Shown here piece after piece: positions 7,314 through 64,000 of a DNA stretch of 64,000 nucleotides. Where the stretch lies: NCBI GenBank assembly GCA_963796365.1, contig CAWCLJ010000004.1:1354519-1418518 (forward strand), given 5' to 3'. Within the stretch, counting starts at the first letter, position 1. Each line of letters opens with the position of its first letter. This DNA comes from an uncultured Chloroflexia bacterium (lineage in GTDB: Bacteria > Chloroflexota > Dehalococcoidia > Dehalococcoidales > RBG-16-60-22). The notes beneath the pieces were generated by a model. The model worked only from the letters and a program-made list of their open reading frames with translations, searched no databases and had not been told where the DNA came from. The position numbers and the translations under genes are program-made.

Positions 7314-7343
7314 CCGATATCCTTCGTTGTACTCAGGATGACA
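7314..7343 (+). repeat. Repeat family D, short copy (ccgatatccttcg...caggatgaca)
   Basis: Shares both termini with 7354-7382, 12698-12761 and 12918-12981. Confidence 0.6.
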
Positions 7344-7353
7344 GAAGGAGAGA

Positions 7354-8156: not shown

Positions 8157-8205
8157 GGATTCCTGCCGGAGTTTACATTAAGTTAAGCGAATGTGCAGGA
8201 ATGAC
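8157..8205 (+). repeat. Repeat family B hairpin (ggattcctgccggagttta...gtgcaggaatgac)
   Basis: Copies at 43243-43291, 53816-53864 and, inverted, 1905-1953. The termini ggattcctg/caggaatgac are self-complementary. Confidence 0.7.
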
Positions 8206-8218
8206 GAGTAGGAGCAAA

Positions 8219-8272
8219 GGTAGGGCAGGCGTCTCGCCTGCCCATCACAGGCAAGATGCCTGTGTTACCGGG
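8219..8272 (+). repeat. Repeat family E (ggtag.gcaggcg...gcaggcaagatgcctg..taccggg)
   Basis: Second copy at 12448-12501. At the first locus it is immediately followed by a ggtgggcaaaa...ttttgcccacc hairpin; a related ggtgggtaaaa...tttacccac hairpin lies about 300 bp away at 12796-12831. Confidence 0.65.
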
Positions 8273-8319
8273 TTGGTGGGCAAAAGAAGGGTGTAAAGGG
8301 TTTTGCCCACCCTACATTA

Positions 8320-10962: not shown

Positions 10963-10971
10963 GTATTACCC

Positions 10972-18108: not shown

Positions 18109-18121
18109 GGCCAGATGTCTC

Positions 18122-19081: not shown

Positions 19082-19231
19082 TTTTAAAAAGACCCTCTTT
19101 GCGGTTCTTTCCGGACCGGCCGGGACCTTAACATGACCCAGAGCTAATATTACAAGGTCTATCTGATTTTGTTAGCCGGGCGGCCCGGCCGTGTTTGATT
19201 ACGGGCCACCCGGCAAATGATATCACTTTAT

Positions 19232-20911: not shown

Positions 20912-21222
20912 CGACGCTATTTGACCTCCACTTTTAATCCATGACAAATGATACTTTCTTTGTCTCATCTTACATAGACTCACCTCCCTGCATACTGGTG
21001 CGATAAAAAAGGAGCTAATTTAATCAGCTCTACCTTAGGTAAACACTAATCATAACGCCGTTAAAAACAGCGCTCAAAATTTTGTATATAATATACAAAA
21101 GATTCGGTGATGTCAAACGTGTTCCGTTATTGATAACTTTATAGGGAAAAGGGTATCAGGAATATGCAGGAAGTGAACAATAGGGGATTGTAAAAAAGGA
21201 TGGTTGAAAAGAGGTTATCTTA

Positions 21223-27851: not shown

Positions 27852-29402
27852 ATGGCCAACAGGAGATTGTCCGTGCGCAAGATCAAAGAGATTCTACGTT
27901 TAAAATTAGACTGCGGCATCAGCGAGCGGGAGATATCACGGAGCTGCCAGGTCTCCCGGAGCACGGTAGCCGATTATCTCAGAAGAGCAGCGGCCGCCAG
28001 GCTGAGTTGGCCGGAAGCGTCAGCCATGGCCGAGGCCCAGCTCGAAGAGCGCCTGTTTCCCACCGAGCACATACCAAGCTCGGTAAAACGTCCACCGCCG
28101 GACTGCGAGCACATTTACAATGAGTTACGTACCTACCGTAAATTCAACCTGACGCTCTCCCAGTTATGGCTGGAGTACAAAGAAAAACACCCGGACGGCT
28201 ACCAGTACACCCAGTTCTGCGAGCATTACTGGCGGTGGCGGAAAAAGCTCGATTACTGCATGCGCCAGGAGCATCGCGGCGGCGAAAAGCTCTTCATCGA
28301 CTACTCCGATGGACTGTCTATCGTCGACACGGTCACCGGCGAGTTTATTCTCACCCAGCTATTTGTCGCCGTCTGGGGAGCTTCCAACTACACCTATGCC
28401 GAAGCCACCCTGTCGCAAACGTTACCGAATTGGATCGGCTCTCACGGGCGGGCTTTCGAGTACTTTGGTTGTGTACCCCGGGTGCTGGTGCCGGATAATC
28501 TCAAGAGCGGCGTCAGCAAAGCCTGTAAGTACGAGCCTGAGTTAAATCCGACCTACGCAGACATGGCCGAGCACTACGGCTGCGCCGTGCTGCCGGCGCG
28601 TCCGCGGAAACCCAGGGACAAGGCGAAAGTCGAAAGCGGCGTGCTCATCGCCCAGAGGTGGATACTGGCGGTGTTACGCCACCGCACTTTCTACAGCCTC
28701 GTCGAGCTTAATGCCGCTATCCGCGAGTGCCTGGAGCGTCTTAATAGCCGTCCCCTGAAAAAGCTCAAGAAGTCACGCCGGGAGCTGTTTGAAACTATTG
28801 ACCGGCCCAATACTTTACCGCTACCACAGAGACCCTACGAATATGCCGAATGGTATAAGGCCAGGGTACAGCTCAATTACCACATCGAAGTAGACCATCA
28901 TTATTACAGCGTGCCTTACCAGCTTTTACATGAGAGACTGGACATCCGGTTAACCGCGGCGATTATCGAAGCTTTCCACAAGGGTGAGCGCGTCGCCGCC
29001 CATACCCGGTCCTATGCCAAAGGCGGCTACACCACGCTCCCGGAGCACATGCCGCCGTCACACCGCTACTACGCCGAGTGGAACCCGGCCCGGTTTATCC
29101 AGTGGGCGGGCAAGACCGGAGAGGCTACCGCCCGGCTGGTGGAAGCAGTCCTTGCCGGCCGCCCTTACCCGGAGCAGGGCTACAAGGCATGCCTGGGTAT
29201 CATTAACCTGACCCGTGATTACGAACCGGTGCGTGTCGAAGCGGCGGCGCGCCGGGCGCTCAAGTTTAAGACCTGCTCCTACCGGTCGCTGAAGGCCATC
29301 CTGTCCGCCGGGCTCGACCGCCAGCCGGATAACGGCGAGCAGCACAGCCTGCCGGGACTGCCGCCGCACCAGAATATCCGGGGACAGGAATATTACCAAT
29401 GA
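27852..29402 (+). CDS. istA: IS21 transposase IstA
   Basis: 516 aa with an N-terminal HTH (SRSTVADYLRR) and an rve/DDE core. Confidence 0.92.
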   Translation: MANRRLSVRKIKEILRLKLDCGISEREISRSCQVSRSTVADYLRRAAAARLSWPEASAMAEAQLEERLFPTEHIPSSVKRPPPDCEHIYNELRTYRKFNLTLSQLWLEYKEKHPDGYQYTQFCEHYWRWRKKLDYCMRQEHRGGEKLFIDYSDGLSIVDTVTGEFILTQLFVAVWGASNYTYAEATLSQTLPNWIGSHGRAFEYFGCVPRVLVPDNLKSGVSKACKYEPELNPTYADMAEHYGCAVLPARPRKPRDKAKVESGVLIAQRWILAVLRHRTFYSLVELNAAIRECLERLNSRPLKKLKKSRRELFETIDRPNTLPLPQRPYEYAEWYKARVQLNYHIEVDHHYYSVPYQLLHERLDIRLTAAIIEAFHKGERVAAHTRSYAKGGYTTLPEHMPPSHRYYAEWNPARFIQWAGKTGEATARLVEAVLAGRPYPEQGYKACLGIINLTRDYEPVRVEAAARRALKFKTCSYRSLKAILSAGLDRQPDNGEQHSLPGLPPHQNIRGQEYYQ

Positions 29403-29417
29403 AAGGAGTAACAAGCT

Positions 29418-30179
29418 GTGCTTAATCAACAGACTATGTCTATCCTGCACTCATTAAAGCTATACGGTATGGCGAGGAGCCTTGAGGAAAGGCTGGCTGA
29501 CGCTAAACAGGCGGCGCTGTCCCATGACGAATTCGTGGGGCTGCTGGTGCAGGATGAAAAACTGTACCGTGACAATTTGAGGCTCCACCGGCTGCTCAAG
29601 AAGGCCAAGCTCCGCCAGGAAGCCGCCCTGGAGGATATCGACTACGGCGCACCCCGCGGAATTTCCCGGCAGGTAATGCTGGAACTGGCTAATCCCCAGT
29701 GGATAACCGCCCATCGTAACGTACTGGTCAGCGGTCCGACCGGCGTCGGCAAGTCATTTATCGCCTGCGCCCTGGGCAACGCCGCCGCCCGTGCCGGCTA
29801 TACCGTGCTCTATGTACGCGCTCCCCGGCTGTTTGAATCCCTGCAGCAGTCACGCGGAGATGGCTCTCATCTCAAAGCCCTCGCCAGGCTAAGCCGGGTG
29901 CAGCTTTTAATTATCGATGACTTCCTGCTTACCCCGCTGGTAGACGGCGAGCGGAGAGATTTGCTGGAGGTAATCGAGGACCGCTACCAGGCAGGAGCGA
30001 CCATTATCGCCAGCCAGTGCCCGGTTAAAGACTGGCACCCCAACATCGGCGACCCCACCCTGGCCGATGCCGTCTGCGACCGGCTGCTGCACAACGCCTA
30101 CAAGATCGAGATGAGAGGCGATTCCATGCGTACCAGGAGACCGGTTACTAAATCTGAGAAGAAGGAGGACTTGTCCTGA
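29418..30179 (+). CDS. istB: IS21 helper ATPase IstB
   Basis: 253 aa. Walker A GPTGVGKSF, Walker B LLIIDDF. Confidence 0.92.
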   Translation: MLNQQTMSILHSLKLYGMARSLEERLADAKQAALSHDEFVGLLVQDEKLYRDNLRLHRLLKKAKLRQEAALEDIDYGAPRGISRQVMLELANPQWITAHRNVLVSGPTGVGKSFIACALGNAAARAGYTVLYVRAPRLFESLQQSRGDGSHLKALARLSRVQLLIIDDFLLTPLVDGERRDLLEVIEDRYQAGATIIASQCPVKDWHPNIGDPTLADAVCDRLLHNAYKIEMRGDSMRTRRPVTKSEKKEDLS

Positions 30180-33416: not shown

Positions 33417-34835
33417 TTATTTTACAACTTTCGGGAATATTTGAATCTGTTCTTTTTCAGACAAATTGAATTCGAATTGGAGTTCTCTTGGCGCAATGTA
33501 TACTTCATCTGCCATACTTGCCTTACCTAATTCGAAAGGCAAATAGGTCTGATTTATGGATTTCAAACTCGCATCTTTATATTTACAAATAATCAAGTAT
33601 TTTCCTTCTGATAAATGCCTTAAATTAGGACAGAATTCCATTTCTTCCTTTACTCTTAATACAGTATTCCTATTAGCTTCAAATAGCTTCAATTCTTTAT
33701 CAAATAAAGCTATTTCAACTTCGATTGCAGGCGAATTTCCATCATTATAGGCAATAAAGTGAGAATGAAAATCGCTTGTAATAGCATTGGGGACTTTTAC
33801 AGAAGGTTTACACATCGCTTTTATAACCACAATCGGTTGTTGTTCGGATTTTGCTAACACTATATTCTGTTTATCAGTAGGTATTTCGCTTTTCTCTTGA
33901 TCTATCAAATCAATTGCATCTTTTAAATGCTTGTCAGTATGTAATGTATATCTTTCTGTATGTACTAAATTGGCATGTCCTAGCAATGACTGAATTTCTC
34001 TGATAGTTGCCCCTTTTTCAGAAAGGGAAGTCGCAAAATAGTCTCTAAGGCTATGTGTATGAATATCAACCCCAGCTTTTGTTGCAAAGAAACGGATTTT
34101 ACCACTTATCGAGGCTGGGACTAAACCAAATAAACTTCCTGTTTTGTCTCTGCCTTTTATATAAGTGTTTAGTTTTCCCATCGTATTTGTTGATAACGGG
34201 ATAACCCTGTCTTTAGCACCTTTGCCTTGCCGGACAATCAAAACCTGTCTTTCGGGATCAATATCCCCTACTTTAAGGTTCGCAAGCTCACTACGCCTTA
34301 ATCCGGTATGAATTGCCAGGTCAACGAGTAGAATATCCCTCTCAATGGTTTTCTTGTGGCTCTTTTTCGATTTTAGAGCGTCCAGAAGCTTTTCAACATC
34401 AGTTTTCTCAACATAAGAGGGCAATATTTTAGGAACACGGATATTAATATCCAAATCTTCTCCATACCATTTGAAAAAGACTTTAAGGATTGCAGCATAA
34501 CGTCCTAGTGTTGTGGGCTTACACTTCATGAATTGGGAAAGAAATGATTTAGCCAATTCGGGAGTAGGGGGATATTCACCCAAATACGAATGAAAGTGAT
34601 TAACTACCCGCTTTGCCTCATGGATTCCTTTTTCAGATCGATGATGAAAAGCTAATTCACCGTCATACAATGCGAATAGTTCGTTATTAGTCTTTTGACG
34701 CAATTCCAAATGTTTCCGTCCTTTGTTACCCAGAAGTATAAACAGTAACTCTCGGAATTGCAATAGTTCTTTAACTTCAGGGAGAACCTGCGACTTTTTG
34801 AGGAAATCTAGAGGAATTTCTTGAGATTTGAATTC
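33417..34835 (-). CDS. Tyrosine recombinase/integrase with ~140-aa C-terminal extension
   Basis: Catalytic R (GLRRSEL), HxxR (HSLRDYF) and Y (HTERYT). The track ORF runs to 34871, but its first 12 codons are tRNA sequence, so the true start is uncertain. Confidence 0.85.
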   Translation of the reverse strand, partial: EFKSQEIPLDFLKKSQVLPEVKELLQFRELLFILLGNKGRKHLELRQKTNNELFALYDGELAFHHRSEKGIHEAKRVVNHFHSYLGEYPPTPELAKSFLSQFMKCKPTTLGRYAAILKVFFKWYGEDLDINIRVPKILPSYVEKTDVEKLLDALKSKKSHKKTIERDILLVDLAIHTGLRRSELANLKVGDIDPERQVLIVRQGKGAKDRVIPLSTNTMGKLNTYIKGRDKTGSLFGLVPASISGKIRFFATKAGVDIHTHSLRDYFATSLSEKGATIREIQSLLGHANLVHTERYTLHTDKHLKDAIDLIDQEKSEIPTDKQNIVLAKSEQQPIVVIKAMCKPSVKVPNAITSDFHSHFIAYNDGNSPAIEVEIALFDKELKLFEANRNTVLRVKEEMEFCPNLRHLSEGKYLIICKYKDASLKSINQTYLPFELGKASMADEVYIAPRELQFEFNLSEKEQIQIFPKVVK

Positions 34836-34837
34836 AT

Positions 34838-34913
34838 TGGTAGGCCGTACAGGATTCGAACCTGTGACCAATGGATTAAAAGTCCACTGCTCTACCAGCT
34901 GAGCTAACGGCCC
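34838..34913 (-). tRNA. tRNA-Lys (anticodon UUU), CCA encoded
   Basis: The reverse complement reads gggccgttagctcagctggtagagcagtggacttttaatccattggtcacaggttcgaatcctgtacggcctacca, which folds as a cloverleaf with anticodon loop cuUUUaa. Confidence 0.9.
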
Positions 34914-37126: not shown

Positions 37127-38977
37127 ATGTCCAGAGGGTACATGGGAAAAGTACTCAAGGTGGACTTGTCCCAAAAAACATTCAAGGATTACGTTTTAGA
37201 TGAAAAAATGTGCCGTGATTACATCGGCGGGTACGGTCTCGCTGCCAAGCTGCTCTGGGACTGGCAAAAGGGCGGCATCGACCCGCTGGGCGCGGAAGCC
37301 AACCTCGGTTTCATTACCGGGCCGCTGACCGGTACGCCCGCGATATCCGGAACGCGCTTTACGGTCTGCGGGAAATCGCCGTTGACCGGTGGGTGGGGGG
37401 ATGCCAACGGCGGCGGTCATTTTGCGGCATTCTTAAAGTTTGCCGGGTATGACGGCGTCTTTTTATCCGGGATTTCACCAAAACCGGTCTATCTCTATAT
37501 CGAAAACGGTAAGGCGGAACTAAGAGACGCCTCCCATCTCTGGGGCAAAGACTGCTATGAAACGGATGATTTGCTGAAAGCGGAGCTGGGCAAAGATGCG
37601 GAAATCGCCTGCATCGGCCCGGCCGGGGAAAAGCTTTCCCTTATATCCGGCATCGTGCATATGAAAGGCAGTGTCGCCGCGCGCTCCGGACTGGGCGCCG
37701 TTATGGGCTCGAAAAAGCTCAAGGCGGTTGTCGTTAAAGGTAATATGAAAGTACCCGTCGCCGATGAGCCGGGCTTGAAAGAACTGCGCAAGAAAATGAT
37801 GGCGATGATGGGCGGTCATATATCCGTCCTGCGGCAGTTCGGCACCACCTTTACCACCGTCCCCAGCATTGAAGGCGGCGACTCACCAGTAAGAAACTAC
37901 GGCGGGGTGGCACAGACGGATTTCCCGGATGCCGGCGGCTTGAGCGCCGAAGAAGTAGCCAACCGCAGCTTAAAACGTATCGCCTGCTACCAGTGCCCTA
38001 TCGGGTGCGAAGCCGCAATGAAAGCAGGCACTGGCCGGTACAAATGGCCGGAAGGCTCCTACCGCCCGGAATATGAGACTATCGTGATGTTCGGCAGTAA
38101 CTGCCTGAACAATAATATAGACTCGGTCATCAAAGCCAACGACCTTTGCAACCAGTTTGGTATTGATACCATATCAGGCGGTTCGGTAGTGGCTTTCGCT
38201 ATGGAGTGCTACGAGCACGGCATCATCACGAAAAAAGATACCGGCGGGCTGGACCTGTCCTGGGGCAACCACGAGGCCGTGGTCGCGCTGACGGAAATGA
38301 TTTGCAAGCGTGAAGGCATCGGCAATATCCTCGCGGACGGCGTGGCCGTAGCCGCGAAAAAACTCGGCAGAGGCGCGGAACAGTATGCCATGCATGTGCA
38401 CGGCCAGGAAGTGCCCGGCCACAGCCCCATCGCTACCCCGGCCATGGCTACCACCTATGCCGCCAGCGCCACACCGGGACGCCATACCCAGGGCTCATCG
38501 GAACACCATAATAAAGGCCTGTTGCCGGACTTCAACCGGACCCTTTACACTGGCCGAGGCGGGGTTCAAAAGCGGGGCGCCTGCTTCCAGAACTCGCTGA
38601 TGTGCTCCGGATACTGCTTGTTCGTTAACTCGGCTTTCCCGGATGCGGACAATATCGCCTCATTCATGGTGCCGGTAACCGGCTGGCCGGTAACGACCGA
38701 TGAACTGGTGGAGACCGGGGAACGCATCGAGAACATGCGCCAGGCCTTTAACCTGCGCGAGGGCGTCAAGCTAATCGACTTCAAGATTGCCGGGCGGCTG
38801 GTGGGCAAACCTCCTAAGAAGAGCGGCCCGATGGCGGGCGTGACCACGGATAATGATGTCATGCTGAAGGACTACTTTGCCGCGATGGGCTGGGACCCGG
38901 CAACCGGCATGTTGAGTAAGAAGCGGATGGAGGAGCTGGGGATGGGGGATATAGCAAAAGCGCTGAAGCTGAAGTAG
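37127..38977 (+). CDS. aor: Aldehyde:ferredoxin oxidoreductase family (tungstopterin) enzyme
   Basis: 616 aa. N-terminal GYMGKVLKVDLS, 4Fe-4S ligands CYQCPIGC, and an AOR family body. Confidence 0.92.
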   Translation: MSRGYMGKVLKVDLSQKTFKDYVLDEKMCRDYIGGYGLAAKLLWDWQKGGIDPLGAEANLGFITGPLTGTPAISGTRFTVCGKSPLTGGWGDANGGGHFAAFLKFAGYDGVFLSGISPKPVYLYIENGKAELRDASHLWGKDCYETDDLLKAELGKDAEIACIGPAGEKLSLISGIVHMKGSVAARSGLGAVMGSKKLKAVVVKGNMKVPVADEPGLKELRKKMMAMMGGHISVLRQFGTTFTTVPSIEGGDSPVRNYGGVAQTDFPDAGGLSAEEVANRSLKRIACYQCPIGCEAAMKAGTGRYKWPEGSYRPEYETIVMFGSNCLNNNIDSVIKANDLCNQFGIDTISGGSVVAFAMECYEHGIITKKDTGGLDLSWGNHEAVVALTEMICKREGIGNILADGVAVAAKKLGRGAEQYAMHVHGQEVPGHSPIATPAMATTYAASATPGRHTQGSSEHHNKGLLPDFNRTLYTGRGGVQKRGACFQNSLMCSGYCLFVNSAFPDADNIASFMVPVTGWPVTTDELVETGERIENMRQAFNLREGVKLIDFKIAGRLVGKPPKKSGPMAGVTTDNDVMLKDYFAAMGWDPATGMLSKKRMEELGMGDIAKALKLK

Positions 38978-44964: not shown

Positions 44965-46704
44965 ATGAAAAGATTCGTATTTTTAACTCTGGCAATCATC
45001 ATCGTATTGAGTATGACGCTCGTCGGTTGCGGCAGCTCAACCAGCACAACCTCAACCAGTACAGCCTCCACCAGTACAACCTCCACTACTTCCACTCCCA
45101 CGGGGCCTATGACGACAGTCATTAACACTCAAACTGAGACTATTACTACTGTACCTACTTCAGCGGCGCCTACAGCCAGTTCCACGACGGGCATTGGCGC
45201 TCTAGCCAAACCGGAAGGCGGTAAATCAGGCGGACGCCTCCAGTTACAGGCAGGCCTCAACATTAATAATATCGGTGACCCCTCCGGCACCGCCGGCCCG
45301 AGCGATGCGGCATACTCCTTCCCGGTTGTCGAGCCGCTGTTCATCCTGGACAAGAACGGTGACCTCGTACCCTGGCTGGCTTCAGGATATACTCCGGCTC
45401 CGGATGGCTCCTCATTGACAATTACACTCCGTCAGGGCATCAATTACACCGACGGCACTCCGTTCAATGCCCAAGTCGCGGCGTGGAACATTACTACTAA
45501 CGGCATCAACAGCGCTATGTGGCCCAACATGAAGAATGTCGAGGATTGCGTCGTCGTTGATGATTATACCATCAGACTCGACTTTGTAGGCGGCAAATGG
45601 AACTGGACCGCCATATCGAGTCTCGCCGGGTTCTGGAGCTGCTGCATGTTCGACCCGACGTCCCTGCAGTCTAATGATGCCACGTGGAAGCATACCCACG
45701 TTGTCGGCACTGGCCCCTTCATCCTCACCAACTACGTCCAGGACCAGAAACTGTCTTACGACGCTAACCCCAATTACTGGAGAGGCAAGCCTTACCTGGA
45801 CGGTATCGATTATAATATCATCGCCGATACGACGGTCGCCCTCCTGGCCTATGATGCCGGGACCATCGATGTACTCGGCGTTCAGCCGAAAGACGCCCAG
45901 AACCTGATTAACGGCGGTTTCACTATCACCACAACCAGCGATATGGTAATGAATCTGTGCATGATACCTTCCAGCGGTAATCCGAACTCCACGCTGAAAG
46001 ATATCAGAATCCGCCAAGCGGTTGAATATGCGATCGATAAACAGGCGCTGGTAAACGCCCTCACTTACGGCTACGGCGTAGCCACGAACCAGGAGTTCTG
46101 CCTGCCGCCTTATCAGGACCCGACGACCGTTGGCTATACATTCGATACGACCAAGTCCAAAGCACTTCTGACGCAGGCCGGCTATCCTAACGGGTTCACG
46201 ACGACACTATACTACGTACAGGGTATGCCTACAGACCTGCCGTTAGCGTTACAGGGCCAGTTAGCTGACGCCGGTATCACGCTTAACCTCGTGGCCGTCG
46301 GCTATATCCAGTTCGTAAATATGATCCAGGGCGGCCAGGGCTGGGATGGGTACGTATTCTCCTACGGTTTCCCGGGTACTACGGTTGACCCGTCCAGCAC
46401 CCTCAGCAACGGCCCGCTCAATGCCATCAGCGTTAACGGCACCTGGAAGATTACTACCTGGGATAGCTGTGCCGAGCCTGACGAAATCTGCAACCTGTTC
46501 GCGCAGTCTAACCAAGAACAGGATCCCGCCAAGAGGACGGCTGATATCCAGGAAATCTCCAGGTTGATGACCGATAAATATTGTATGTGGACCTTCTTCT
46601 ACTATACTCCTGGCCTCATGTCGGTAGCTCCTTACGTTAAGGGCTGTACAATAGGTCAAGATACCGAGTGGTTCCCTTATGACTACTGCTGGTTGAACAA
46701 GTAG
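44965..46704 (+). CDS. Family-5 peptide ABC substrate-binding lipoprotein with Ser/Thr-rich linker
   Basis: Lipobox LVGC, an STSTTSTSTASTSTTSTTST linker, and an SBP_bac_5-like body. Confidence 0.88.
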   Translation: MKRFVFLTLAIIIVLSMTLVGCGSSTSTTSTSTASTSTTSTTSTPTGPMTTVINTQTETITTVPTSAAPTASSTTGIGALAKPEGGKSGGRLQLQAGLNINNIGDPSGTAGPSDAAYSFPVVEPLFILDKNGDLVPWLASGYTPAPDGSSLTITLRQGINYTDGTPFNAQVAAWNITTNGINSAMWPNMKNVEDCVVVDDYTIRLDFVGGKWNWTAISSLAGFWSCCMFDPTSLQSNDATWKHTHVVGTGPFILTNYVQDQKLSYDANPNYWRGKPYLDGIDYNIIADTTVALLAYDAGTIDVLGVQPKDAQNLINGGFTITTTSDMVMNLCMIPSSGNPNSTLKDIRIRQAVEYAIDKQALVNALTYGYGVATNQEFCLPPYQDPTTVGYTFDTTKSKALLTQAGYPNGFTTTLYYVQGMPTDLPLALQGQLADAGITLNLVAVGYIQFVNMIQGGQGWDGYVFSYGFPGTTVDPSSTLSNGPLNAISVNGTWKITTWDSCAEPDEICNLFAQSNQEQDPAKRTADIQEISRLMTDKYCMWTFFYYTPGLMSVAPYVKGCTIGQDTEWFPYDYCWLNK

Positions 46705-46744
46705 AGGGAAAAGAATAAGAGCCGTAAAAACGGCAGAGAAATAA

Positions 46745-46782
46745 AGTACGGGCCTCGAGAAATCGAGGCCCGTACTATTTTT
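46745..46782. terminator. Bidirectional intrinsic terminator
   Basis: Perfect 14-bp stem agtacgggcctcga/tcgaggcccgtact with loop gaaa, followed by attttt. It lies between convergent genes. Confidence 0.8.
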
Positions 46783-47004
46783 AGTTCAGGGAGTAAGGAG
46801 TATTGGTGAGTATCAACTGTCAATCGGCTGGTGATAAAGGAGAGAGATACTAAATTCTGATATCTAAATTCTAATGCTCGCCTTATTCCCTATTACCCAA
46901 TGAGAGGAGAGGCCAGGAGCCACACCCCCGGAGCCCCCGCCAGAGGGAGTTATCTCTGGACTCTCTTTGGGATTTAGTACTTAGAATATTTTTCCTTTTC
47001 TCTT

Positions 47005-47988
47005 TTAAACTCTGATGCAGGCCACAAAATGCCCGTTACCGACATCGCGTAAAGGGGGTCTGGCTTGAGCACATTCCGGTATCGCCATACTGCAGCGCGG
47101 GTGGAAATGACAGCCGGGAGGGGGCATGACCGGACTTGGTACTTCACCTTTAAGGACAATACGCTGACGGGTCTTTTCCGCTATGGGGTCGGGGATGGGA
47201 ATAGCGGAAAGCAAAGCTTTAGTATAAGGGTGCAGCGGATTTTCATAAAGGTCCATGGAGTCGGATAATTCCATAATGCGCCCCAGGTACATCACGGCGA
47301 CACGGTCGCTGATATGCTGCACTACTGCCAGGTCATGGGCGATAAAAAGATAAGTCAGCCCCAGTTTTGTCTGGAGTTCTTCCAGCAGGTTAATAATCTG
47401 GGCCTGGATGGAGACATCGAGGGCGGAAATAGGCTCATCGCAAACTACCAATGAAGGGCTGCAGGCCAGGGCGCGCGCCACGCCGATACGCTGGCGCTGA
47501 CCGCCGCTGAACTCATGCGGGACGCGGTCCATCATGCTGGGGTCCAGACCGACCAGCTTGAATAAATCGGCCACCTTATTACGGAGGTCCTTCCCAGTGG
47601 CCATATTGTGTATTTTCAAGGGGTCTCCCACGATATTCCCGGCGGTCTGCCGCGGATTGAGCGACCCGAAAGGGTCCTGGAAAATGACACCCATATTGCG
47701 GCGTAAATCTTTTAACTTATGTTCAGGCATCATGGAGATATCATTTCCATTAAAAAAAATACTGCCAGACGTGGGATTATAAAGACGCAAAATACAACGG
47801 CCGGTAGTAGTCTTGCCGCAGCCGCTTTCGCCCACCAGCCCGAGCGTCTCATTTTTTTTAATGATAAAGCTAATTTCATCTACGGCCTTCACATCTCCGA
47901 CTTTTTTCCGGAATAGTCCCCGTGTAATGGGGAAATACATCTTAAGGTCTTTAACATCAACCATCACGTTATTATCTGATGTTGTCAT
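47005..47988 (-). CDS. Oligopeptide ABC transporter ATP-binding protein (OppF-like)
   Basis: GESGCGKTT, FSGGQRQR, VCDEPISALD. The start MTTSDNN at 47988 overlaps the upstream stop (TAATG). Confidence 0.88.
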   Translation of the reverse strand: MTTSDNNVMVDVKDLKMYFPITRGLFRKKVGDVKAVDEISFIIKKNETLGLVGESGCGKTTTGRCILRLYNPTSGSIFFNGNDISMMPEHKLKDLRRNMGVIFQDPFGSLNPRQTAGNIVGDPLKIHNMATGKDLRNKVADLFKLVGLDPSMMDRVPHEFSGGQRQRIGVARALACSPSLVVCDEPISALDVSIQAQIINLLEELQTKLGLTYLFIAHDLAVVQHISDRVAVMYLGRIMELSDSMDLYENPLHPYTKALLSAIPIPDPIAEKTRQRIVLKGEVPSPVMPPPGCHFHPRCSMAIPECAQARPPLRDVGNGHFVACIRV

Positions 47989-48974
47989 TACTTCCCCTTT
48001 TTGTCTGCAAAGCAGGCTACGTAATGCTGCTCGCCCACGGCGCGTAATGCCGGCCAGGGTTCTTTGAGGCATCTTTCGACCTTGCGGGTACACCTGGGCA
48101 GGAAAGCGCAGGTTGGCGGCATATCGATAAGGTTTGGCGGCAGACCCTCGATAGGTACCAGTTTTCTCGTGCCGTGCCTTTCACCCAGCTTGGGTACGCT
48201 GTTTAACAGGCCGATGGTATAAGGGTGCTGCGGGCGTTCAAAAATATCTTCAGAAAGGCCGGACTCGATAATACGGCCGGAATACATGACGTAAATTCTC
48301 TGGGCATAGCGGGCTACTACCCCCAGGTTATGGGTGACGATAACCAGCGATGCATGGTGCTGTGTGACCAGGTCTTTCATCAGCTCCAGAAGCTGTGCCT
48401 GGGTGGTCACATCCACGGCGGTGGTAGGTTCATCGGCAAAGATTATCTCCGGGTTGCAGGAAAGCGCCATGGCAATCATGACGCTCTGGCGCATGCCGCC
48501 GCTAAACTGGTGCGGGTAATCATCGATGCGGCTGGGCGCATCCGGCACGCCGACCATCCGTAAAAGCTCGATGGCCCTTTCTCTGGAAGCATGTTTATCC
48601 ATCTTGAGATGGAGTTCCAGCGTTTCCGTCACCTGGCGGGCAATGGTCAATACCGGGTTCAGCGAGGTCATTGGCTCCTGGAATATCATCGTCATTTTGC
48701 CGCCGCGGATGGAGCGCATTTCCGGGCCGTTGGCTTCGAGCTTACGCAGGTCCTGCCCATCGAAGATGATGGTGCCGTCCACGATTTCACCCGGCGATTG
48801 TATCAATTGCATCACGGAAAGAATACTGACGGATTTACCGCAGCCGCTTTCGCCTACCAGCCCGATAATTTCACCCTGGTTGACATGGAAAGAGACGCCA
48901 TCCGCCGCTTTGACCAGGCCGTATTCCGTTTTAAAATAGGTCTTGAGGTTTGTTACTTCCAATATACCTGCCAT
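47988..48974 (-). CDS. Oligopeptide ABC transporter ATP-binding protein (OppD-like)
   Basis: [27 protein letters not shown], with a C-terminal oligopeptide-type extension. Confidence 0.9.
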
Positions 48975-49006
48975 AATACCATCCTCATATTAATGGTGTA
49001 ACATTC

Positions 49007-49921
49007 TTATAAAACACCCCTTAGTTTCGGGTCAATAGCGTCTCTGATGCCGTCGCCGACCATATTAAATCCGTATACCAGGATCATAATAGCCACTCCG
49101 GGGGCTATGGCAAGCAAAGGATTGGTTAAGAGTTGAGACTGGCCATCCATGACCATATTGCCCCAGGAGGGAGTGGGAGCCTGGATACCGATGCCCAGGT
49201 AGCTTAGGCCGGCTTCCCCCAGCACGATACCGCCGATGGCCATCGTTAAACCGACGATTAAAGGAGGGAAGGCATTAGGAAAGATTTGTGTCAGCATGAT
49301 ACGCCAGTTACTCATACCGACAGCCTTGCCTGCCAGGACGTAATCATTCTGTTTCACGCTTAATGCCTGGCCGCACATCATACGTGCCATACCAGGGATG
49401 TTGCCGAAGCCGAGGGCAAAGATGACGACCCAGATACTCCTGGCGGTGGACAGACCGGCGATCAGCATCATCAGGATGATGCTGGGTAAGGCCATCAATA
49501 CATCAACAATTCTCATGATGACCGTGAAAACCCAGCCGCCGAAGTGCGCTGCCGCAAGGCCAAGCAAAATCCCGATGATGGAGGAACCGAAGACCGCAAT
49601 GAAGCTAACCTCAAGAGAAATCCGGGCGCCATAAACAATGCGGCTAAAGACATCTCTTCCGAGCTGGTCGGTGCCCAGCAAATGATGCACGGAAGGCCCC
49701 TTTAGCACAGCGTTTAAGTTGGTTTTTATAGGGTTATAAGGTGCTATCAAAGGCGCAAAAATTGCTAAGATTAAGATGAAGACGCACATGACAAAACCTA
49801 TTAAGTAGAGTTTGCGCCCGAAGAACACTCTCGTGAAACGGCGCCACTCGCTGTGGTGAGGTGGGGCTGCCGTCAGGTCAATAGTTTCAACGTTCGTGGT
49901 CGATACGGTTTTGTCTGCCAT
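49007..49921 (-). CDS. Oligopeptide ABC permease (OppC-like)
   Basis: 304 aa, paralogous to 17212-18108. Confidence 0.88.
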   Translation of the reverse strand: MADKTVSTTNVETIDLTAAPPHHSEWRRFTRVFFGRKLYLIGFVMCVFILILAIFAPLIAPYNPIKTNLNAVLKGPSVHHLLGTDQLGRDVFSRIVYGARISLEVSFIAVFGSSIIGILLGLAAAHFGGWVFTVIMRIVDVLMALPSIILMMLIAGLSTARSIWVVIFALGFGNIPGMARMMCGQALSVKQNDYVLAGKAVGMSNWRIMLTQIFPNAFPPLIVGLTMAIGGIVLGEAGLSYLGIGIQAPTPSWGNMVMDGQSQLLTNPLLAIAPGVAIMILVYGFNMVGDGIRDAIDPKLRGVL

Positions 49922-49930
49922 GTCAGCCTC

Positions 49931-50902
49931 CTAAGAATATCTGATCCTGGGGTCCAGCCAGCCCCAGGCTATGTCTACTGCTAAATTGGAAAAAATAACG
50001 ATAGCGCCGAAAATGAGAGCGGTTGCCTGCACTATCTGGTAATCGTAATTGAAAATGGCCTGCGTCATCAATAAGCCCATACCGGGAATATCGAAGACCG
50101 TTTCGATAAAGACCGAGCCTCCCAGAATCATGGCGATCGAACCGCCGAGAGCGGTAATGACCGGAATCATGGCATTTTTAATCTGGTGACGGACGACAAT
50201 GATACGCTCGCGCAAGCCCTTGGCCCAGGCGGTGCGGACATAGTCTGTCCGCATGACTTCGAGCATGCAGGAGCGCACCAGACGGGCCATACCGGCAATA
50301 CCACCCAGTGCTACCGATGCTACTGGCAATATCACGTGGCGGCAACTCCCCCAGAAATCTTGAAACGGATTGACCCATCCGAAGAGCGGAAGCCAGTGGA
50401 GTTTGTACCCGAAAATAAATATCAGCATGATACCGGCCCAGAATGTCGGTACTGTCATCCCGATGTTGGAGATTGAGGTAATGGTATTATCCAGCCATGA
50501 GCCCCTCCTCAGAGCGCAATAAATGCCGGCGAGGATACCTCCGAAGGTAGATATGATGAAAATGAGCAAGCCGATATATACTGTCCTCGGGATGCGGCTC
50601 ACCAAAAGTGATGAGACACTCTGCCCGACACTAATTGACTGGCCCAGATTGCCATGAAGAACTTGACCGATCCAGGTAACATACTGGGCGTAAATCGGCC
50701 TGTCCAATCCGTACTTGTGCATCAAAACTGTATGCTCCTGGGGAGTCATCACGCTCATCTGTCCGCCACTCATCCTGTAGTTGCCCATATAAACCATGAG
50801 AGGGTCTCCGGGCAACAGGCGAACGAGCAAAAACACCAGCATGGTGACGAAGAGAAGGATGAGTAAACCGATTAACACACGACGAACGATATAGGTTGTC
50901 AT
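49931..50902 (-). CDS. Oligopeptide ABC permease (OppB-like)
   Basis: 323 aa, paralogous to 18122-19081. Confidence 0.88.
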   Translation of the reverse strand: MTTYIVRRVLIGLLILLFVTMLVFLLVRLLPGDPLMVYMGNYRMSGGQMSVMTPQEHTVLMHKYGLDRPIYAQYVTWIGQVLHGNLGQSISVGQSVSSLLVSRIPRTVYIGLLIFIISTFGGILAGIYCALRRGSWLDNTITSISNIGMTVPTFWAGIMLIFIFGYKLHWLPLFGWVNPFQDFWGSCRHVILPVASVALGGIAGMARLVRSCMLEVMRTDYVRTAWAKGLRERIIVVRHQIKNAMIPVITALGGSIAMILGGSVFIETVFDIPGMGLLMTQAIFNYDYQIVQATALIFGAIVIFSNLAVDIAWGWLDPRIRYS

Positions 50903-51324: not shown

Positions 51325-53011
51325 ATGGAAAACAATTTCCTCTCTTATGAAGTTCTTAGCCCCTGGGCGGAAGCCGACCCTGTTCCGTTTAAAGGCATTA
51401 ACCCCCGGGTAGATAAGCTTGACGGCAAAAAAATCGGTTTATTTTGCAATACCAAGCGGGTGGCTGAGCCTGCTTTAAAGGTGGTTGAAAGCCGTTTAAA
51501 GAAAGCTTATCCTGCCGCAGGGACCAGCTGGTTTTTCAATATGGTGCCTAACGAAGCGATTATTGAACAGCCGCGGAAAGGTGAATTCGAAAGCTGGCTA
51601 AAGGGGGTGGACGCGGTCATTGCCGCTTACGGGGATTGAGGGTCCTGCACCAAGTACCTTGTGTACGACGCAGTTTCCATTGAAGACCGGCAGAAACCGG
51701 TTGTCGCGCTGGTGAATTACGGATTTATGAATGATGCCGAATCCGCTTCCCGCGCCAAGGGGATGCCAAATGTAAGAGTGGTATCTACCAAAGTCCCGTG
51801 TGAAAGCACGGTCATCGCCGATATTGAGGCCGGAATAGATGGAGCCTGGAACGATATTATTTCCGCTTTAACGCGCTCCCTCACCGCCGAAGAAAAGAAT
51901 CCCCGCGTAGAAAAAAAGGAAAAGCCGGAACGTATTATCTTTAAAGGCAGCCTGGAAGAGGTCAATCTCTTTTTCTACCGGCGCGGCTGGACGGACGGCC
52001 TGCCTGTCATCCCTCCCACTGAAGCAGCGGTCAAAGAAATGCTTACCGGCACGGACCTGCCCCCGGACCGCTTATTGGGTAAATTGCAGTCCCGCAATGG
52101 CAAGGCCACGGTAGAAAAAATCGCAATCAACGCCGTCATGGCCGGCTGCCTGCCCACCTATCTGCCGGTAATTATCGCCGGTACGTTAGACCTGATGAGA
52201 ATCGGAACCCGGTTTTGCCGGCTATACCACCTTTGGTTTCAGCACCGGCTCCTGGTCGCCCTTCTGGATTATCAACGGCCCGGTACGCAACGAGATTAAC
52301 GTCAATAACGGTTCCGGGGCCTTCAGCCCGGGCAATATCGCCAATGCCGCCATCGGCCGCGCCATGGGGTTGATAATTAAGAACATCGGCGGCGTGCGCA
52401 AGGGCATCGAGGACATGGGAGTGATGGGCAACCCCATGAAATATACGATGGTGATTGCGGAAAACGAGGAAGAAAGCCCGTGGGAGCCCCTGCACGTGGA
52501 GCTTGGTTATAAAAAAGAGGACAGCACTATCACCCTCTCTTTCCCGCAATCATACTTGCAGCATTACCCTGCGGGTACGGACCCGGCAAGCGTTTTGCAA
52601 TCAATTTTGGAAAACATGCCGCGCGGTATGCGTTATACGATCGTCATGAATCCGGCTTATGCCAGGAACTTTGCCCGTGAAGGTTTTACCAAGGAGACCA
52701 TTAAAAAATATATTGCGGAAAATAGACTTGTCCCGGCGACCCAGCTAAGACCGCAGGCTGTTATCTCCGGTCAGGGCGGGCCTGAAACGCGGCCTTCATC
52801 GCGGGAAGAAAATAAAATGGTACCGCTGATAAGAGACCCGCGTTTTATCAGGATCATCGTAGGTGGTGGACCGGGCGCGTTCGTGGCCCATCTCATCGGC
52901 GGCGGCGCTACTCCGGGCCAGAAGGAAATCCAGAAAATCGAGCTGCCGAAGAACTGGGCCAAACTGGTTGCCAAGTATAAGAATGTGGTGCCAAACTACA
53001 CAAAATACTGA
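51325..53011 (+). CDS. Candidate selenoprotein, paralog 1 (GD-U-GSC motif); needs TGA read-through at 51637-51639 and a +1 frame change near 52199-52210
   Basis: Track ORFs 51325-51639 and 51661-52299 are in the same frame across the TGA. ORF 52364-53011 continues the homology in the +1 frame. About 561 codons when joined, and colinear with paralog 2. Confidence 0.55.
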
Positions 53012-53189
53012 ACAATTTTTGCAACTAATAATTATTGGGCATAACATATAAATAATTACATGAAAGGGTATGGAAGTAACAAGTAGCAACCGTTCAAGTA
53101 ACAGGGAATGATTAAGGAGAGAGGGAGAAATAACCAAACATCTATTCACAATAACCAAATTCTCAGGCCCCGTCATTAAGAGCTCGCTG

Positions 53190-53755
53190 GATACCCCCCA
53201 GCTAGGCTGGGGGGAGGAAAGCGAGTTCGCCGAAGGCGAAGCGGTTGATAGGATAGGAAAATCGTGGTATAAAGGTGGGGTGGCAATAAGAAGGACGAAA
53301 CACGCGGTTTATGAGCTGAAGTATCACCTAGTCTGGGTACCGAAATACCGAGCGCATATATTGGGTGGGGAGGTAACCCAGTACTTAAAAGGAATCTTCA
53401 GGCAGATAGCCGAGGAGTATGATTTTCAAATAGAGGCGATGGAGGTAATGGCGGATCATGTACATGTATTTATCGAAGCGCCGCCATCGTACTCGCCATC
53501 AGAAATAGTGCAGGTGTTAAAGAGTATATCGGCAAAAGAAGTATTTAAGAAATACCCAAGGATGAGGAAAATAATGTGGAGTGGGAAGATGTGGAACGAG
53601 GGTTATTATGTTAGGAGTGTGGGGGATAAAGTAACGAGTGAAGTGATCAAGAAATATATCAAATATCAGAAATATGAAGATAAAGACAGTCAGTTAAGGA
53701 TGTTCGAAAAGGGGTAGGGAAGGGAGAAGCCCCCCAGCTCTGCTGGGGGGTACGT
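53190..53755 (+). mobile_element. IS200/IS605-family element (tnpA only)
   Basis: Flanking hairpins ccccccagctaggctgggggg (53194-53214) and ccccccagctctgctgggggg (53730-53750) bracket tnpA. The boundaries are approximate. Confidence 0.8.
53280..53717 (+). CDS. tnpA: IS200/IS605 family Y1 (HUH) transposase TnpA
   Basis: 145 aa. YELKYHLVWVPKYR, HVHVFIEAPP (HUH), GYYVRSVG. Confidence 0.92.
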   Translation: MAIRRTKHAVYELKYHLVWVPKYRAHILGGEVTQYLKGIFRQIAEEYDFQIEAMEVMADHVHVFIEAPPSYSPSEIVQVLKSISAKEVFKKYPRMRKIMWSGKMWNEGYYVRSVGDKVTSEVIKKYIKYQKYEDKDSQLRMFEKG

Positions 53756-53779
53756 CACTCCCGATCTAGTCGGGAATCC
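53754..53779 (-). repeat. Repeat family C mini-hairpin (inverted)
   Basis: gtcactcccgatctagtcgggaatcc. Confidence 0.55.
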
Positions 53780-53815
53780 AACAGGGTTAGGCAGAAAATG
53801 ATTGGACTCATTGTT

Positions 53816-53864
53816 GGATTCCTGCCGGAGTTTATACTGAGCGAAGCGAATGTGCAGTAATGAT
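53816..53864 (+). repeat. Repeat family B hairpin
   Basis: ggattcctgccggagtttatactgagcgaagcgaatgtgcagtaatgat. Confidence 0.7.
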
Positions 53865-53963
53865 GTTTCGATTGGTTATTATTTTATTAACCCATTTCTC
53901 ACTTCCTTGATACTTGCTACTTGGTAATTGATACTTTTACTAATCATAAGGAGGTTATGTTTT

Positions 53964-55635
53964 ATGGACCAGAAAAACACGGCTTATGAAGTATTAAGCC
54001 CCTGGGCGGAAGCGGATCCCATTCCCTTGCACGGTCTTTCACCGCGGCTGGATAAACTGGACGGCAAGAAAATAGGCTTGTTGGCCAATAACAAGCGCGC
54101 CGCTCCCCTTATCCTGGATGTCACGGAAAAACTGCTCAAGCAAAAGTTCTCCGGCGTGCAGACCAGCCGGTTCCGGGCCCGCTCTTTTTCCGTATCATCA
54201 CTGGAAAAGGACCGCGAGGCGGAGTTTAATGAATGGATTAATGGGGTGGATGCGGTTATCGCCGCCGTCGGGGACTGAGGGGCATGCACCAAGTACCTTG
54301 TGTACGATGCAATTTATATCGAGGGCAAAGGCAAGCCCGCTTCAACCTATATTTTTGAGCATTTCTACAATGACGCCATGTCCGCTGCTTCCAGCAAGGG
54401 CATGCCGGTCATCCGGGTCGTCAAGGAAAAAGTAGTTTCCGAATGTACGGTGATGGCCGAGCTTGAACCGGCTATTACCGCGGTCTTCACTGAAGTTATC
54501 GATGTTTTAACGAAACCTCTCACCGCCGAGGAAAAAGCCCCGAAGCGGAAAGAGCCGGAAAACCCGCCTCGGCTGATTTTCAAGGGTAACCTTGCAGAAG
54601 TCAACGAGTTTTTCTATCGTCGGGGCTGGACGGACGGCTTGCCTATCATCCCGCCCACCGAGGAAGCGGTTAAAGAAATGATGGCCAGCACGGATTTCCC
54701 GGCCGACTACCTGGTGACAAAGCTTGAGCCGCGTATGGGCAAAGCTACTGTCGAACGTATCGCTATCAATGCGGTGATGGCCGGATGTTTGCCGACTTAT
54801 ATGCCGCTGTTAATTGCCGGCGTGCAGGCGCTTGGGGCTAATGCCGGCCCCGGTATGATGGCGGCGAGCACCGGCTCCTGGGCGCCCTTCTGGCTGATTA
54901 ACGGCCCGGCTTCCCGAGATCTTAAATTTCCGTTCTACCTACGGCGCATCCAGCCCCGGCGACATCGCCAATGCTGCCTTCGGGCGTGCCATGGGGCTGA
55001 TAACCAAAAACATCCGCGGCATCCGCAAGCAAATCGAGGACATGGGCGTCCTCGGTAACCCGGGGAAATTCTCCTTTGTCGCGGCGGAAAACGAGGAAAA
55101 CAGCCCGTGGGAGCCTAACCACGTGGACCACGGCTTTAAGAAGGAAGACAGTACCGTCACCCTGATGTTCCCTAATACCTACCAGCAGATGATGCCCTTC
55201 GGGACGGATGATAAAGGTATCCTCGGCACCATCATCGGCAGCATTTTCCCCGCCCGCATCGGCGGTTTTGTCGCGATATTAACGCCCAACAACGCCCAGG
55301 CATTAGCCAGGCGCGGCTGGAGTAAGCGAAAGGTCAAAGATTATATTGTGGAAAATGCCATCGTCCCGGACGATTATTACAGCCGACTGGGACTGGATGC
55401 CAGGGAGATTGTCGGTAAAGGGGTCATGACGCCGGAGGATTTCAAACGTATCTTTATCCCCTCCAAAAACGACCCCGACCCGGTGCAGGTCTTTGTTTAC
55501 GGCGGGTTCGGCTCCTGGGTAGGACTGGCGCAGGGCGGCGGGGCGCCGATTGTTAAAAAAGCGGAGCTGCCGAAAAACTGGGTTAAACTGGTAGCCAAAT
55601 ACAAGAACGTTGTCCCGAATTACGTGCGGTATTAG
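53964..55635 (+). CDS. Candidate selenoprotein, paralog 2 (GD-U-GAC motif); needs TGA read-through at 54276-54278 and a +1 frame change near 54913-54921
   Basis: AAGGAGG lies 9 nt upstream of the ATG at 53964. ORFs 53928-54278 and 54300-55058 share a frame across the TGA, and ORF 54991-55635 continues in the +1 frame. About 556 codons when joined. Confidence 0.55.
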
Positions 55636-58339: not shown

Positions 58340-59167
58340 TCATTTCTTCTTCCCCGCCTGTTTCTTTACTTCTTCGCGCGGCAGAGGCGCCAGTGGTAAA
58401 AGCGGCAGTCCGCCCGCCACATAAAGCGCCTGCCCGGTAATCCACGAGGACATATCTGAAGCTAGGAACAAAGCTGCATTAGCAATATCCTCCGGCAGGC
58501 CGATACGCTGTAAAGGCGTTTTCTTCCCCATAAACACCCAGGCTGTTTCCTGCTGCTCTTTGGGCATCGCGCCGATGGTGGAATCGTAAAAACTGGTCTT
58601 GACCGGGCCGGGCAGGATGCAGTTAACGTTAATATTGAACGGCGCCAGGGCGTTGGCAAGGTCGGTGGTAAAGCTGATGACGGCGCCTTTGGCGGTATTA
58701 TAGTTGATTTCATGCGCCGGCGGCTGGACGGCCCCAATGGAAGAGAGCCCGATAATTTTCCCGTAATGCGCCTTCTTCATAAAAGGCACAACATATTTGC
58801 AGAAAAGGAAATGGCTCTTTAAATTCAGCGCCATCACATTGTCCCAGGTTTCCTCGCTCATATCTTCGATGGGGATGTGCCTGGCGATAGCGCCGGCGTT
58901 ATTAATCAAAATATCTATTTTCTTAAATTGTTTGATGACTCTATCAATGGTATCGGCCACCTGCTTGCCGCTGGTTACATCGCACTTAACGGCGAGCGCT
59001 TTACCGCCCTTCTTTTTATTGATGGCGGACGCTACCTTTTCCGCTTCATCGATAGCGATATCGATGACGGCTATATTACAGCCCTCTTCCGCAAACTTTT
59101 CCGCCATGCCCCGCCCCATGCCTTTGGCCCCGCCGGTAATAATCGCAACTCTATCATCCAATAACAT
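58340..59167 (-). CDS. Short-chain dehydrogenase/reductase (FabG-like)
   Basis: TGGAKGMG cofactor motif, NNAG, and a YNTAK catalytic Y-x3-K. Confidence 0.88.
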   Translation of the reverse strand: MLLDDRVAIITGGAKGMGRGMAEKFAEEGCNIAVIDIAIDEAEKVASAINKKKGGKALAVKCDVTSGKQVADTIDRVIKQFKKIDILINNAGAIARHIPIEDMSEETWDNVMALNLKSHFLFCKYVVPFMKKAHYGKIIGLSSIGAVQPPAHEINYNTAKGAVISFTTDLANALAPFNINVNCILPGPVKTSFYDSTIGAMPKEQQETAWVFMGKKTPLQRIGLPEDIANAALFLASDMSSWITGQALYVAGGLPLLPLAPLPREEVKKQAGKKK

Positions 59168-63273: not shown

Positions 63274-64000
63274 CTAGTCAAAGTCTTTCATATCGATAGG
63301 CCAGCCGGCACCCTCATCGGCTTGCAGGGCGAGCTTGGCATAAATGCACAGCATGCCTTTCACGTGGGCCTGGGAAGGCGCTTTCCATTGTGCTTTTCTC
63401 TTCGCCAGTTCGGCATCGGAGACCTGCAGTTCCAGCTTACGGGCCGGGATATCCAGGTTAATCTTGTCGCCGTCTTTGACTAAAGCGAGCGGGCCGCCCA
63501 CCTGCGCCTCCGGGCAAACATGCCCGATGGAAAGGTAGCCCTGGGTAAAGCCGGAGAAACGCCCGTCTGTGATGATGATCACGTCCTGTATCTTATATTG
63601 CTTGAGCGGGGATAGAGCGCTGAGACATTCCGCAAAAGCCGGACCGCCCCGCGGGCCCTGGTACTGGAGGACGACGGCATCGCCGGGTTTGATTTTACCG
63701 GCAGCCGCGCCTTCATTAATTCCCTGCACGGAAGTAAATACCCTGGCGGTATAGACTCTTTTCAAGAGGTCTTTATTTTCCACCACCGTATGGCGGACGA
63801 CGGCGCCGCGCGGAGCGAGATTCCCGGTTAGAACGCCGTCGCGCCTTCCGGCCAGAGGGACGTATTGAGCGGCCGGATGATTTCATTGTCTAATACCTCG
63901 GCATCTTTCAGGTTTTCGCCGACGGTCTTGCCGGTAACGGTAATGCAGGACTTGTCCAGCCATTTCTCGATGCGTTTCATGACAGCTGGTGTGCCGCCGG
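63274..64000 (-). pseudogene. ilvD: Dihydroxy-acid dehydratase, 3' part (continues beyond the window), frameshifted near 63846-63880
   Basis: The C-terminal part reads GVLTGNLAPRGAVVRHT...ITDGRFSG...GHVCPEA. The upstream part, GGTPAVMKRIEKWL...EIIRPL, is in a different frame, and the frame change lies at a GGG/CCC run. Confidence 0.8.

Follow-up and report, generated by a model that had tools for sequence, protein, structure and literature searches.

Two tandem genes crossed by a TGA codon

The 64,000-nucleotide (nt) stretch analysed here, which we call the window, belongs to contig CAWCLJ010000004.1 from an uncultured member of the Dehalococcoidia and carries, on its forward strand between positions 51325 and 55635, two tandem genes whose reading frame is crossed by a TGA codon. 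In copy 1 (51325-53011, + strand), the open reading frame (ORF) 51325-51639 ends in ...VIAAYGD-TGA (...KGVDAVIAAYGD-TGA) and GSCTKYLVYDAVSIEDRQKP follows in the same frame; in copy 2 (53964-55635, + strand), ORF 53964-54278 ends in ...VIAAVGD-TGA (...NGVDAVIAAVGD-TGA) and is continued, likewise in frame, by GACTKYLVYDAIYIEGKGKP. An initial annotation, made from the letters of the DNA, had taken the in-frame TGA within a conserved GD-TGA-G(S/A)CTKYLVYD motif as the sign of a candidate selenoprotein, and the ORFs and their translation bear out this motif in both copies. With the TGA read as selenocysteine (Sec, U) and one base removed from each copy, the genes would encode proteins of ~561 and ~556 amino acids (aa), respectively. 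The repaired paralogues are 52% identical from end to end over ~560 aa, and their likeness runs unbroken across the TGA, as the annotation had also stated. Our reading of the locus, to which we assign a probability of roughly 85%, is that it holds two old tandem paralogues of a UGSC-family selenoprotein fused to a second domain of ~360 aa, each copy with one extra base, and that their products may belong to a three-part reductase.

The N-terminal module can be placed in a known family. In both copies the UGSC domain spans aa 10-183 (51352-51873 in copy 1 and 53991-54512 in copy 2, both + strand) and matches the Pfam profile PF24696 (UGSC family) over positions 2-171 of 172, scoring 95.0 bits in copy 1 and 89.5 bits in copy 2, where the gathering score is 25. 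The sole NCBIfam match was NF041046, 'UGSC family (seleno)protein', a name that the initial annotation had put forward. Its scores of 79 and 74.3 bits fall under the equivalog cutoff of 125, which counts against strict membership and makes the two copies relatives, not equivalogs, of the stand-alone proteins on which the model was built. That assignment therefore stands at the level of the family and fails at that of the equivalog. The characteristic motif is found as DAVIAAYGD-U-GSC in copy 1 (TGA at 51637-51639) and as DAVIAAVGD-U-GAC in copy 2 (TGA at 54276-54278), and it recurs in like form at the 96 orthologous sites described below. The proteins thus resemble the 'UGSC-containing protein' of Zhang and Gladyshev in that their N-terminal 180 aa fit the model, in that U-G-S/A-C is aligned, and in that Sec and Cys alternate among members; they differ in the additional domain of ~360 aa and in the lower NF041046 scores.

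UGSC-containing proteins have been predicted selenoproteins since ~2005-2008, when they were noted in surveys of ocean metagenomes (PMC2398784). The Global Ocean Sampling study counted 255 forms with Sec and 21 with Cys and gave a 'likely Trx-like fold' (PMC2398784), and a fusion of UGSC with a domain termed 'Unknown_1' was described from ocean metagenomes in 2008 (PMC2398784); 'Unknown_1' may correspond to the ~360-aa C-terminal domain seen here. A 2026 review still lists UGSC as functionally uncharacterised and as predicted only (PMC13188914). A fused relative of 553 aa (WP_431428495.1) carries the NCBI name 'UGSC family (seleno)protein'. The core of our finding is consequently already known in kind, and the genes of the window join a catalogued family of predicted selenoproteins.

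The remainder of each gene, located at 51937-53011 in copy 1 and at 54561-55635 in copy 2 (both + strand, both with a broken frame), encodes a C-terminal domain that no Pfam or NCBIfam model matches in either copy. The sequence motifs that the initial annotation had listed for it, namely RRGWTDGLP(V/I)IPPTE, AINAVMAGCLPTY, and AENEE.SPWEP, are all present. Copy 1 has its closest relatives among the Dehalococcoidia, where intact 449-aa ORFs that begin past the TGA are 79-80% identical to it. Orthologues of the copy 2 type ('AAVGD-U-GAC...DAIY/F') were recognized at loci L011, L014, L016-L022, L024, L030, L031, L045, and L084 of the set introduced in the next section.

The in-frame TGA as a sense codon

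A scan of species-representative genomes returned 79 loci with orthologues of the fused genes. Counting second copies, 78 of these loci provided 96 distinct orthologous sites, and every one of the 96 carried TGA; TAA, TAG, or a Cys codon occurred at none. The sites are spread over at least eight phyla (Chloroflexota, Desulfobacterota, Acidobacteriota, Zixibacteria, Planctomycetota, Proteobacteria, Dormiibacterota, and Bacillota). Around the TGA, Asp at -1 and Gly, Cys, and Thr at +1, +3, and +4 never change although their codons do, and at codons +1, +3, and +4 we counted 61 synonymous differences and 0 non-synonymous ones.

These counts bear directly on the way in which the genes are currently annotated. 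In public gene calls, essentially each orthologue appears as two 'hypothetical proteins', one of 105 aa and one of 449 aa, and database searches mirror this partition: the joined sequence retrieved >7,600 relatives, the best 120 of which were all ~449 aa long and started just past the TGA, and nearly everything that the N-terminal module retrieved was an ORF of 104-106 aa ending at the TGA. Taken at face value, the TGA would be a true stop and the locus would consist of two cistrons, one for a UGSC fragment of 104 aa and one for a 449-aa protein with its own initiation, for which a GTG eight codons past the TGA and a GAGGG overlapping the TGA could serve as start signals. The seven codons from TGA to GTG are, however, under purifying selection at the protein level, as the 61:0 ratio indicates, and in 10 sequences codon +8, where translation would have to restart, reads GCG. 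Furthermore, a stop at this point would cut the single Pfam domain PF24696 (aa 10-183) in two, and it would invariably have to be TGA, never TAA or TAG. Finally, homologues exist in which the frame is uninterrupted. Three full-length proteins have Cys at the U position (P0247 and P0300 with GDCGSC, P0354 with GDCGNC), as does the stand-alone UGSC protein of locus L085 (GDCGSC), and further homologues have Ala or Gly in its place and keep the second Cys; in some the motif is lost. We consider the two-cistron arrangement very improbable.

Even less credit is due to the proposal that the whole genome reads TGA as an amino acid such as Trp or Gly, or that sequencing misread a TGC or TGT as TGA. 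Six of the 33 Pfam-confirmed genes of the window terminate at TGA as an ordinary stop, which speaks against a global recoding, and a sequencing error would have had to produce the identical TGA 96 times over, in independent sequences drawn from many assemblies. The conservation of TGA, the purely synonymous change around it, the Cys homologues, and the ordinary TGA stops together exclude, in our judgement, the two-cistron, recoding, and sequencing-error explanations. The comparison of orthologues thereby establishes the TGA of GD-TGA-G(S/A)C as a conserved sense position which, judged by its pattern of change, is translated in frame. The initial annotation had looked to Cys-containing orthologues aligned at U for confirmation and had named orthologues in the form of two independent ORFs as an outcome that would speak against it; the former were found, the latter were not, and no other contrary outcome that it had named and that could be checked was observed. 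Other in-frame TGA candidates of the window proved to be shadow frames in all cases.

At the level of the family, a reading of this TGA as selenocysteine is strongly supported by the sequence comparison, and we infer that the codon is decoded by means of SelB and tRNA-Sec. Several orthologous loci carry genes of this machinery. Locus L058 encodes SelA (TIGR00474, 554 bits against a cutoff of 268), a tRNA-Sec (UCA), and SelB (TIGR00475, 408 bits against 242); these three genes sit inside 6 kb (883-7347) together with the UGSC-fusion gene and one for a thioredoxin-reductase-like (TrxB-like) protein. In L071, tRNA-Sec and selB stand beside the orthologue (~8300-11650), and selB was likewise found beside the orthologues of L024, L053, and L064. 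Moreover, the Dehalococcoidia include metagenome-assembled genomes with 46-49 selenoproteins (PMC13326102). L058 and L071 are both from proteobacterial metagenome-assembled genomes in which the Sec genes directly adjoin the UGSC-fusion gene, an arrangement that looks like a portable cassette of Sec machinery plus client; in L058 a gene for a large serine recombinase comes next (7784-10237).

Bacterial Sec insertion sequence (SECIS) elements of the E. coli type, exemplified by fdhF, are short hairpins that lie just 3' of the UGA, with a G/U in the apical loop and a bulged base. Downstream of the TGA in the UGSC-fusion genes, synonymous sites are almost frozen. Synonymous-codon entropy falls to 0.08 bits at Lys +5, 0.09 at Tyr +6, 0.67 at Leu +7 (nearly always CUU, of six codons), 0.23 at Val +8, and 0.09 at Tyr +9, compared with 0.86-1.0 bits in comparable two-fold codons of the flanks, and this drop indicates that selection acts on the RNA itself at nt +10 to +30 past the UGA. 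A short SECIS probably overlaps codons +4 to +9, with a sequence that is nearly invariant and a fold that is only a candidate. Its putative core occupies 51646-51666 in copy 1 (UGCACCAAGUACCUUGUGUAC), and the same 21 nt recur at 54285-54305 in copy 2 (both + strand). In the candidate hairpin, UGCAC[C]AA-GUACC-UUGUGUA, a single base bulges out, G-U stands at the start of the loop, and the apical loop lies 15-16 nt past the UGA; 92.6% of cells were paired in candidate hairpin A. It resembles the E. coli type in its location directly 3' of the UGA and within coding sequence, in its single bulged base, and in the G-U that opens the loop, and it differs in being weaker than is typical, in lacking support from covariation, and in a sequence that is nearly invariant across phyla, which is unusual. 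The stand-alone UGSC gene of locus L088 also has an in-frame TGA, and the sequence that follows it is unlike the conserved element of the fused genes, indicating that the SECIS is not uniform across the wider family.

Several results weigh against the selenoprotein reading of the locus. No compensatory changes were seen among orthologues in the best hairpin, RNAalifold returned no consensus structure, and a search for covariation in three explicit hairpin registers yielded none apart from a single double change, in L029, in an alternative GUAC/GUAC register. The minimal hairpin reaches only -3.2 kcal/mol, and synonymous recodings of the same peptide are not significantly less stable. Ala or Gly takes the place of U in many homologues, so that a redox couple of two residues would not be usable by every member of the family. 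Lastly, the 64-kb window contains neither tRNA-Sec nor sel genes, and an Rfam scan of it detected a tRNA-Lys only.

One extra base in each copy

The initial annotation had described each gene as a single frame continuing past the TGA. This is correct across the TGA and incorrect beyond it, since each copy shifts once from frame 0 to frame +1. In copy 1 an extra A lies near 52198 (CTG ATG [A] GAA TCG, site 52195-52201, + strand), as revealed by nucleotide alignment with L006-L010 and L073; the orthologues read DLLESEPGF at this point. In copy 2 the extra base falls within 54924-54932 (AAATTTCCG, + strand), and the ten copy-2-type orthologues with which it was aligned are intact, with 451-452 codons past the TGA. 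The frame changes explain why the downstream part of each gene was listed as a pair of ORFs, 51661-52299 with 52364-53011 in copy 1 and 54300-55058 with 54991-55635 in copy 2. Programmed +1 frameshifting was ruled out, given that orthologues are without a shift at either site.

A further difficulty for our interpretation is the frameshift that each copy carries in the assembly as deposited, because with one extra base each, neither could make the full protein as written. The family could well be one of selenoproteins and the two copies be true pseudogenes in this particular genome, disabled by one-base insertions, possibly after Sec decoding or the need for the enzyme had been lost. The NCBI/ENA record of the 1,996,400-bp source contig does encode exactly the frameshifted ORFs, sel genes were not found in the window, and the window has other lesions, including a frameshifted dihydroxy-acid dehydratase gene and a substitution-type TAG in a gene of the NMT1 family, as well as IS200, IS21, and integrase elements. 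Real decay would be consistent with both the substitution-type TAG and the number of insertion sequence (IS) elements. On the other hand, each copy has exactly one lesion, the corrected frames are free of premature stops, and identity to intact relatives amounts to 52-80%. All three indels sit in short repeats or homopolymers, and a single metagenome contig of 2.0 Mb suggests a long-read assembly, which is prone to errors of this kind. A single lesion in a repeat or homopolymer, set in an otherwise clean and conserved frame, fits an error of the long-read consensus. On balance we put the pseudogene explanation somewhat below an even chance.

Short reads approach both sites from either side. 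Over 11,941 nt, Logan contigs assembled from the short reads of two runs show a single mismatch to the window and not one indel; the contigs concerned (L004, L005, and L002) end, however, at the edges of the paralogue pair, stopping at 51668/51675 and resuming at 55009, so that both frameshift sites fall in the gap. A look-up for independent records of the IS200 transposase or of the N-terminal ORF of copy 2 returned none. In both runs the contigs break 30-40 nt past the TGA of copy 1, inside the ultra-conserved SECIS-like stretch. It is likely that this element, being common to co-occurring genomes, disrupts the de Bruijn graphs, and it may systematically fragment these genes in metagenome assemblies.

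The C-terminal domain and its gene context

A permissive Pfam scan of all 102 members of the alignment found nothing consistent for the C-domain, which is nevertheless abundant, with ~4,700 clusters at 50% identity in many phyla. An AlphaFold2 model of the orthologue P0005, built from 102 diverse sequences, reached a predicted local distance difference test (pLDDT) score of 92.5; an earlier input of 30 close homologues had given a pLDDT of 46 and was not used. A Foldseek comparison of the C-domain of this model with the PDB produced no match, and sequence-profile searches of the PDB (A1 and A3) gave spurious matches only. Eight polar residues are nearly invariant in the domain (T120, T150, N157, N228, R233, N241, E267, and E269 in P0005 numbering), and it has no conserved Cys or His. 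The initial annotation had been unable to assign it a function.

The company that the C-domain keeps is more telling. Loci L085-L087 have three separate genes spaced by gaps of 4-5 nt, namely UGSC in its Cys form (198 aa), a C-domain of 369 aa, and a pyridine-nucleotide-disulfide oxidoreductase (Pyr_redox_2) of 316 aa. In L088 (5001-6621) the order is reversed, a C-domain gene preceding a stand-alone UGSC gene with an in-frame TGA (GD-TGA-GSCVSCSVHD). The UGSC module and the C-domain are a conserved pair, fused in the window and adjacent elsewhere in either order. The pair often stands beside a gene for a thioredoxin-reductase-like flavoprotein: a TrxB-like gene (TIGR01292, 259 bits, below cutoff) adjoins the fusion gene at 17 of the 79 loci by tblastn, in five phyla, an earlier clustering of ORFs having given 14. 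In addition, P0307 (494 aa) is a C-domain fused at its C-terminus to the catalytic domain of ferredoxin:thioredoxin reductase (FTR; FeThRed_B). Other recurrent neighbours are a short-chain dehydrogenase/reductase, present at 22 loci and located at 58340-59167 in the window, genes of an Opp/Nik-type ATP-binding cassette (ABC) transporter, found near the orthologue at 10-13 loci, a zinc-dependent alcohol dehydrogenase, and a small cupin-like protein.

Some members of the set have unusual architectures. P0328 (1226 aa) and P0349 (1254 aa) are giant proteins with four matched stretches and a UGSC domain, the former also with a domain resembling the N-terminal domain of copper amine oxidases. The C-domain forms P0247 and P0310 carry twin-arginine signal peptides, which imply periplasmic versions.

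The recurrence of disulfide-reducing partners (UGSC, the TrxB-like protein, and the FTR domain) suggests a three-part selenol/thiol reductase driven by NAD(P)H. Provided that the genes are functional, NAD(P)H would reduce the TrxB-like flavoprotein; this reductase, or an FTR-like module in some relatives, would return the U-x-x-C selenenylsulfide of UGSC to the selenol/thiol state; and reduced UGSC would then hand the reducing equivalents on to a substrate that the C-terminal domain binds. Against this scheme, in which both the direction of electron flow and the substrate-reducing activity are postulated, one must set that gene context is its sole basis and that no TrxB-like gene lies next to the pair in the window. 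We regard it as about equally likely to be right or wrong.

Glycine reductase (GrdA/GrdB) and D-proline reductase (PrdB) are selenoenzymes fed by thioredoxin, with trxB/trxA in the operon. The putative UGSC system is like them in having a Sec/Cys couple (UxxC or CxxU) on a small module, a TrxB-type NAD(P)H flavoprotein encoded alongside, and several components with a separate part that handles the substrate. It is unlike them in that the sequences are unrelated, neither full-length protein matching PF07355 or any other Grd/Prd model at E <= 1, in that a partner of the pyruvoyl-type proprotein kind was not seen for UGSC, and in that the C-domain has no detectable relative among solved structures. 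Taken further, UGSC, the C-domain, and the TrxB-like protein might constitute an undescribed and widespread NAD(P)H-dependent selenol/thiol reductase whose catalytic fold is without a solved relative, a tentative proposal on which the odds, in our estimate, lie clearly on the other side. If true, this would be a new selenoenzyme class with a small-molecule substrate, which the recurrent Opp/Nik-type transporter possibly brings into the cell.

What is new here is the C-domain as an abundant, unmodelled partner with a three-component redox context. The Cys-type operon of L085-L087 would be expressible without Sec machinery, and it offers a defined three-gene system for a long-uncharacterised selenoprotein. 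The orthologues also have value for annotation, inasmuch as the split public calls hide a single fused gene in essentially every case.

The copies in the window are separated by an IS200/IS605-type insertion (53192-53752, + strand) with a tnpA gene at 53280-53717 (PF01797 Y1_Tnp, 142.8 bits), bounded by near-identical hairpins CCCCCCAGC(N3)GCTGGGGGG at 53194-53214 and 53730-53750 (repeats D1/I1). The insertion accounts for the ~800 nt of extra spacing relative to orthologous tandem pairs, the distance from TGA to TGA being 2,639 nt here versus ~1.8 kb in L019, L020, and L022. Upstream of copy 1 lies an Opp/Nik-type ABC transporter (44965-50902, mixed strands), in agreement with the divergent oligopeptide ABC operon that the initial annotation had placed next door. 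It comprises a substrate-binding protein (44965-46704, + strand; SBP_bac_5, NikA-like below cutoff), two ATPases with oligo_HPY (47005-48974, - strand), and two permeases (49007-50902, - strand; OppC_N/BPD_transp_1 by precomputed Pfam hits on identical genes). A second Opp/Nik-type ABC cluster is found at 17212-20983.

Further features of the window are of a more general nature. An IS21 pair (IstA-like at 27852-29402 and IstB at 29418-30179) and a tyrosine integrase (33417-34871) that abuts a tRNA-Lys (34838-34913) suggest an integrated mobile element in mid-window. The NMT1/THI5-like substrate-binding protein gene (10972 to ~12090, - strand) has an in-frame TAG at ~11813-11815 (WIAQD-TAG-GFFNRNGLEV), where we presume a sense codon to belong; the change is a substitution and not an indel, and reflects either a pseudogene or an error. 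In the dihydroxy-acid dehydratase gene (63274-64000, - strand) the frameshift lies near 63835-63850, in the context GGCGCGACGGCG, with '...SLWPEGATAF*' in one frame and 'DGVLTGNLAPRGAVV...' in another, and the listed ORF covers positions 39-191 of ILV_EDD_C only. ORF 59-886 was considered as an N-terminally truncated gene and rejected as such, for it crosses the start of the window. Finally, the window encodes a class II ribonucleotide reductase with NrdR (2076-5224) and a tungsten-type aldehyde:ferredoxin oxidoreductase (37127-38977).

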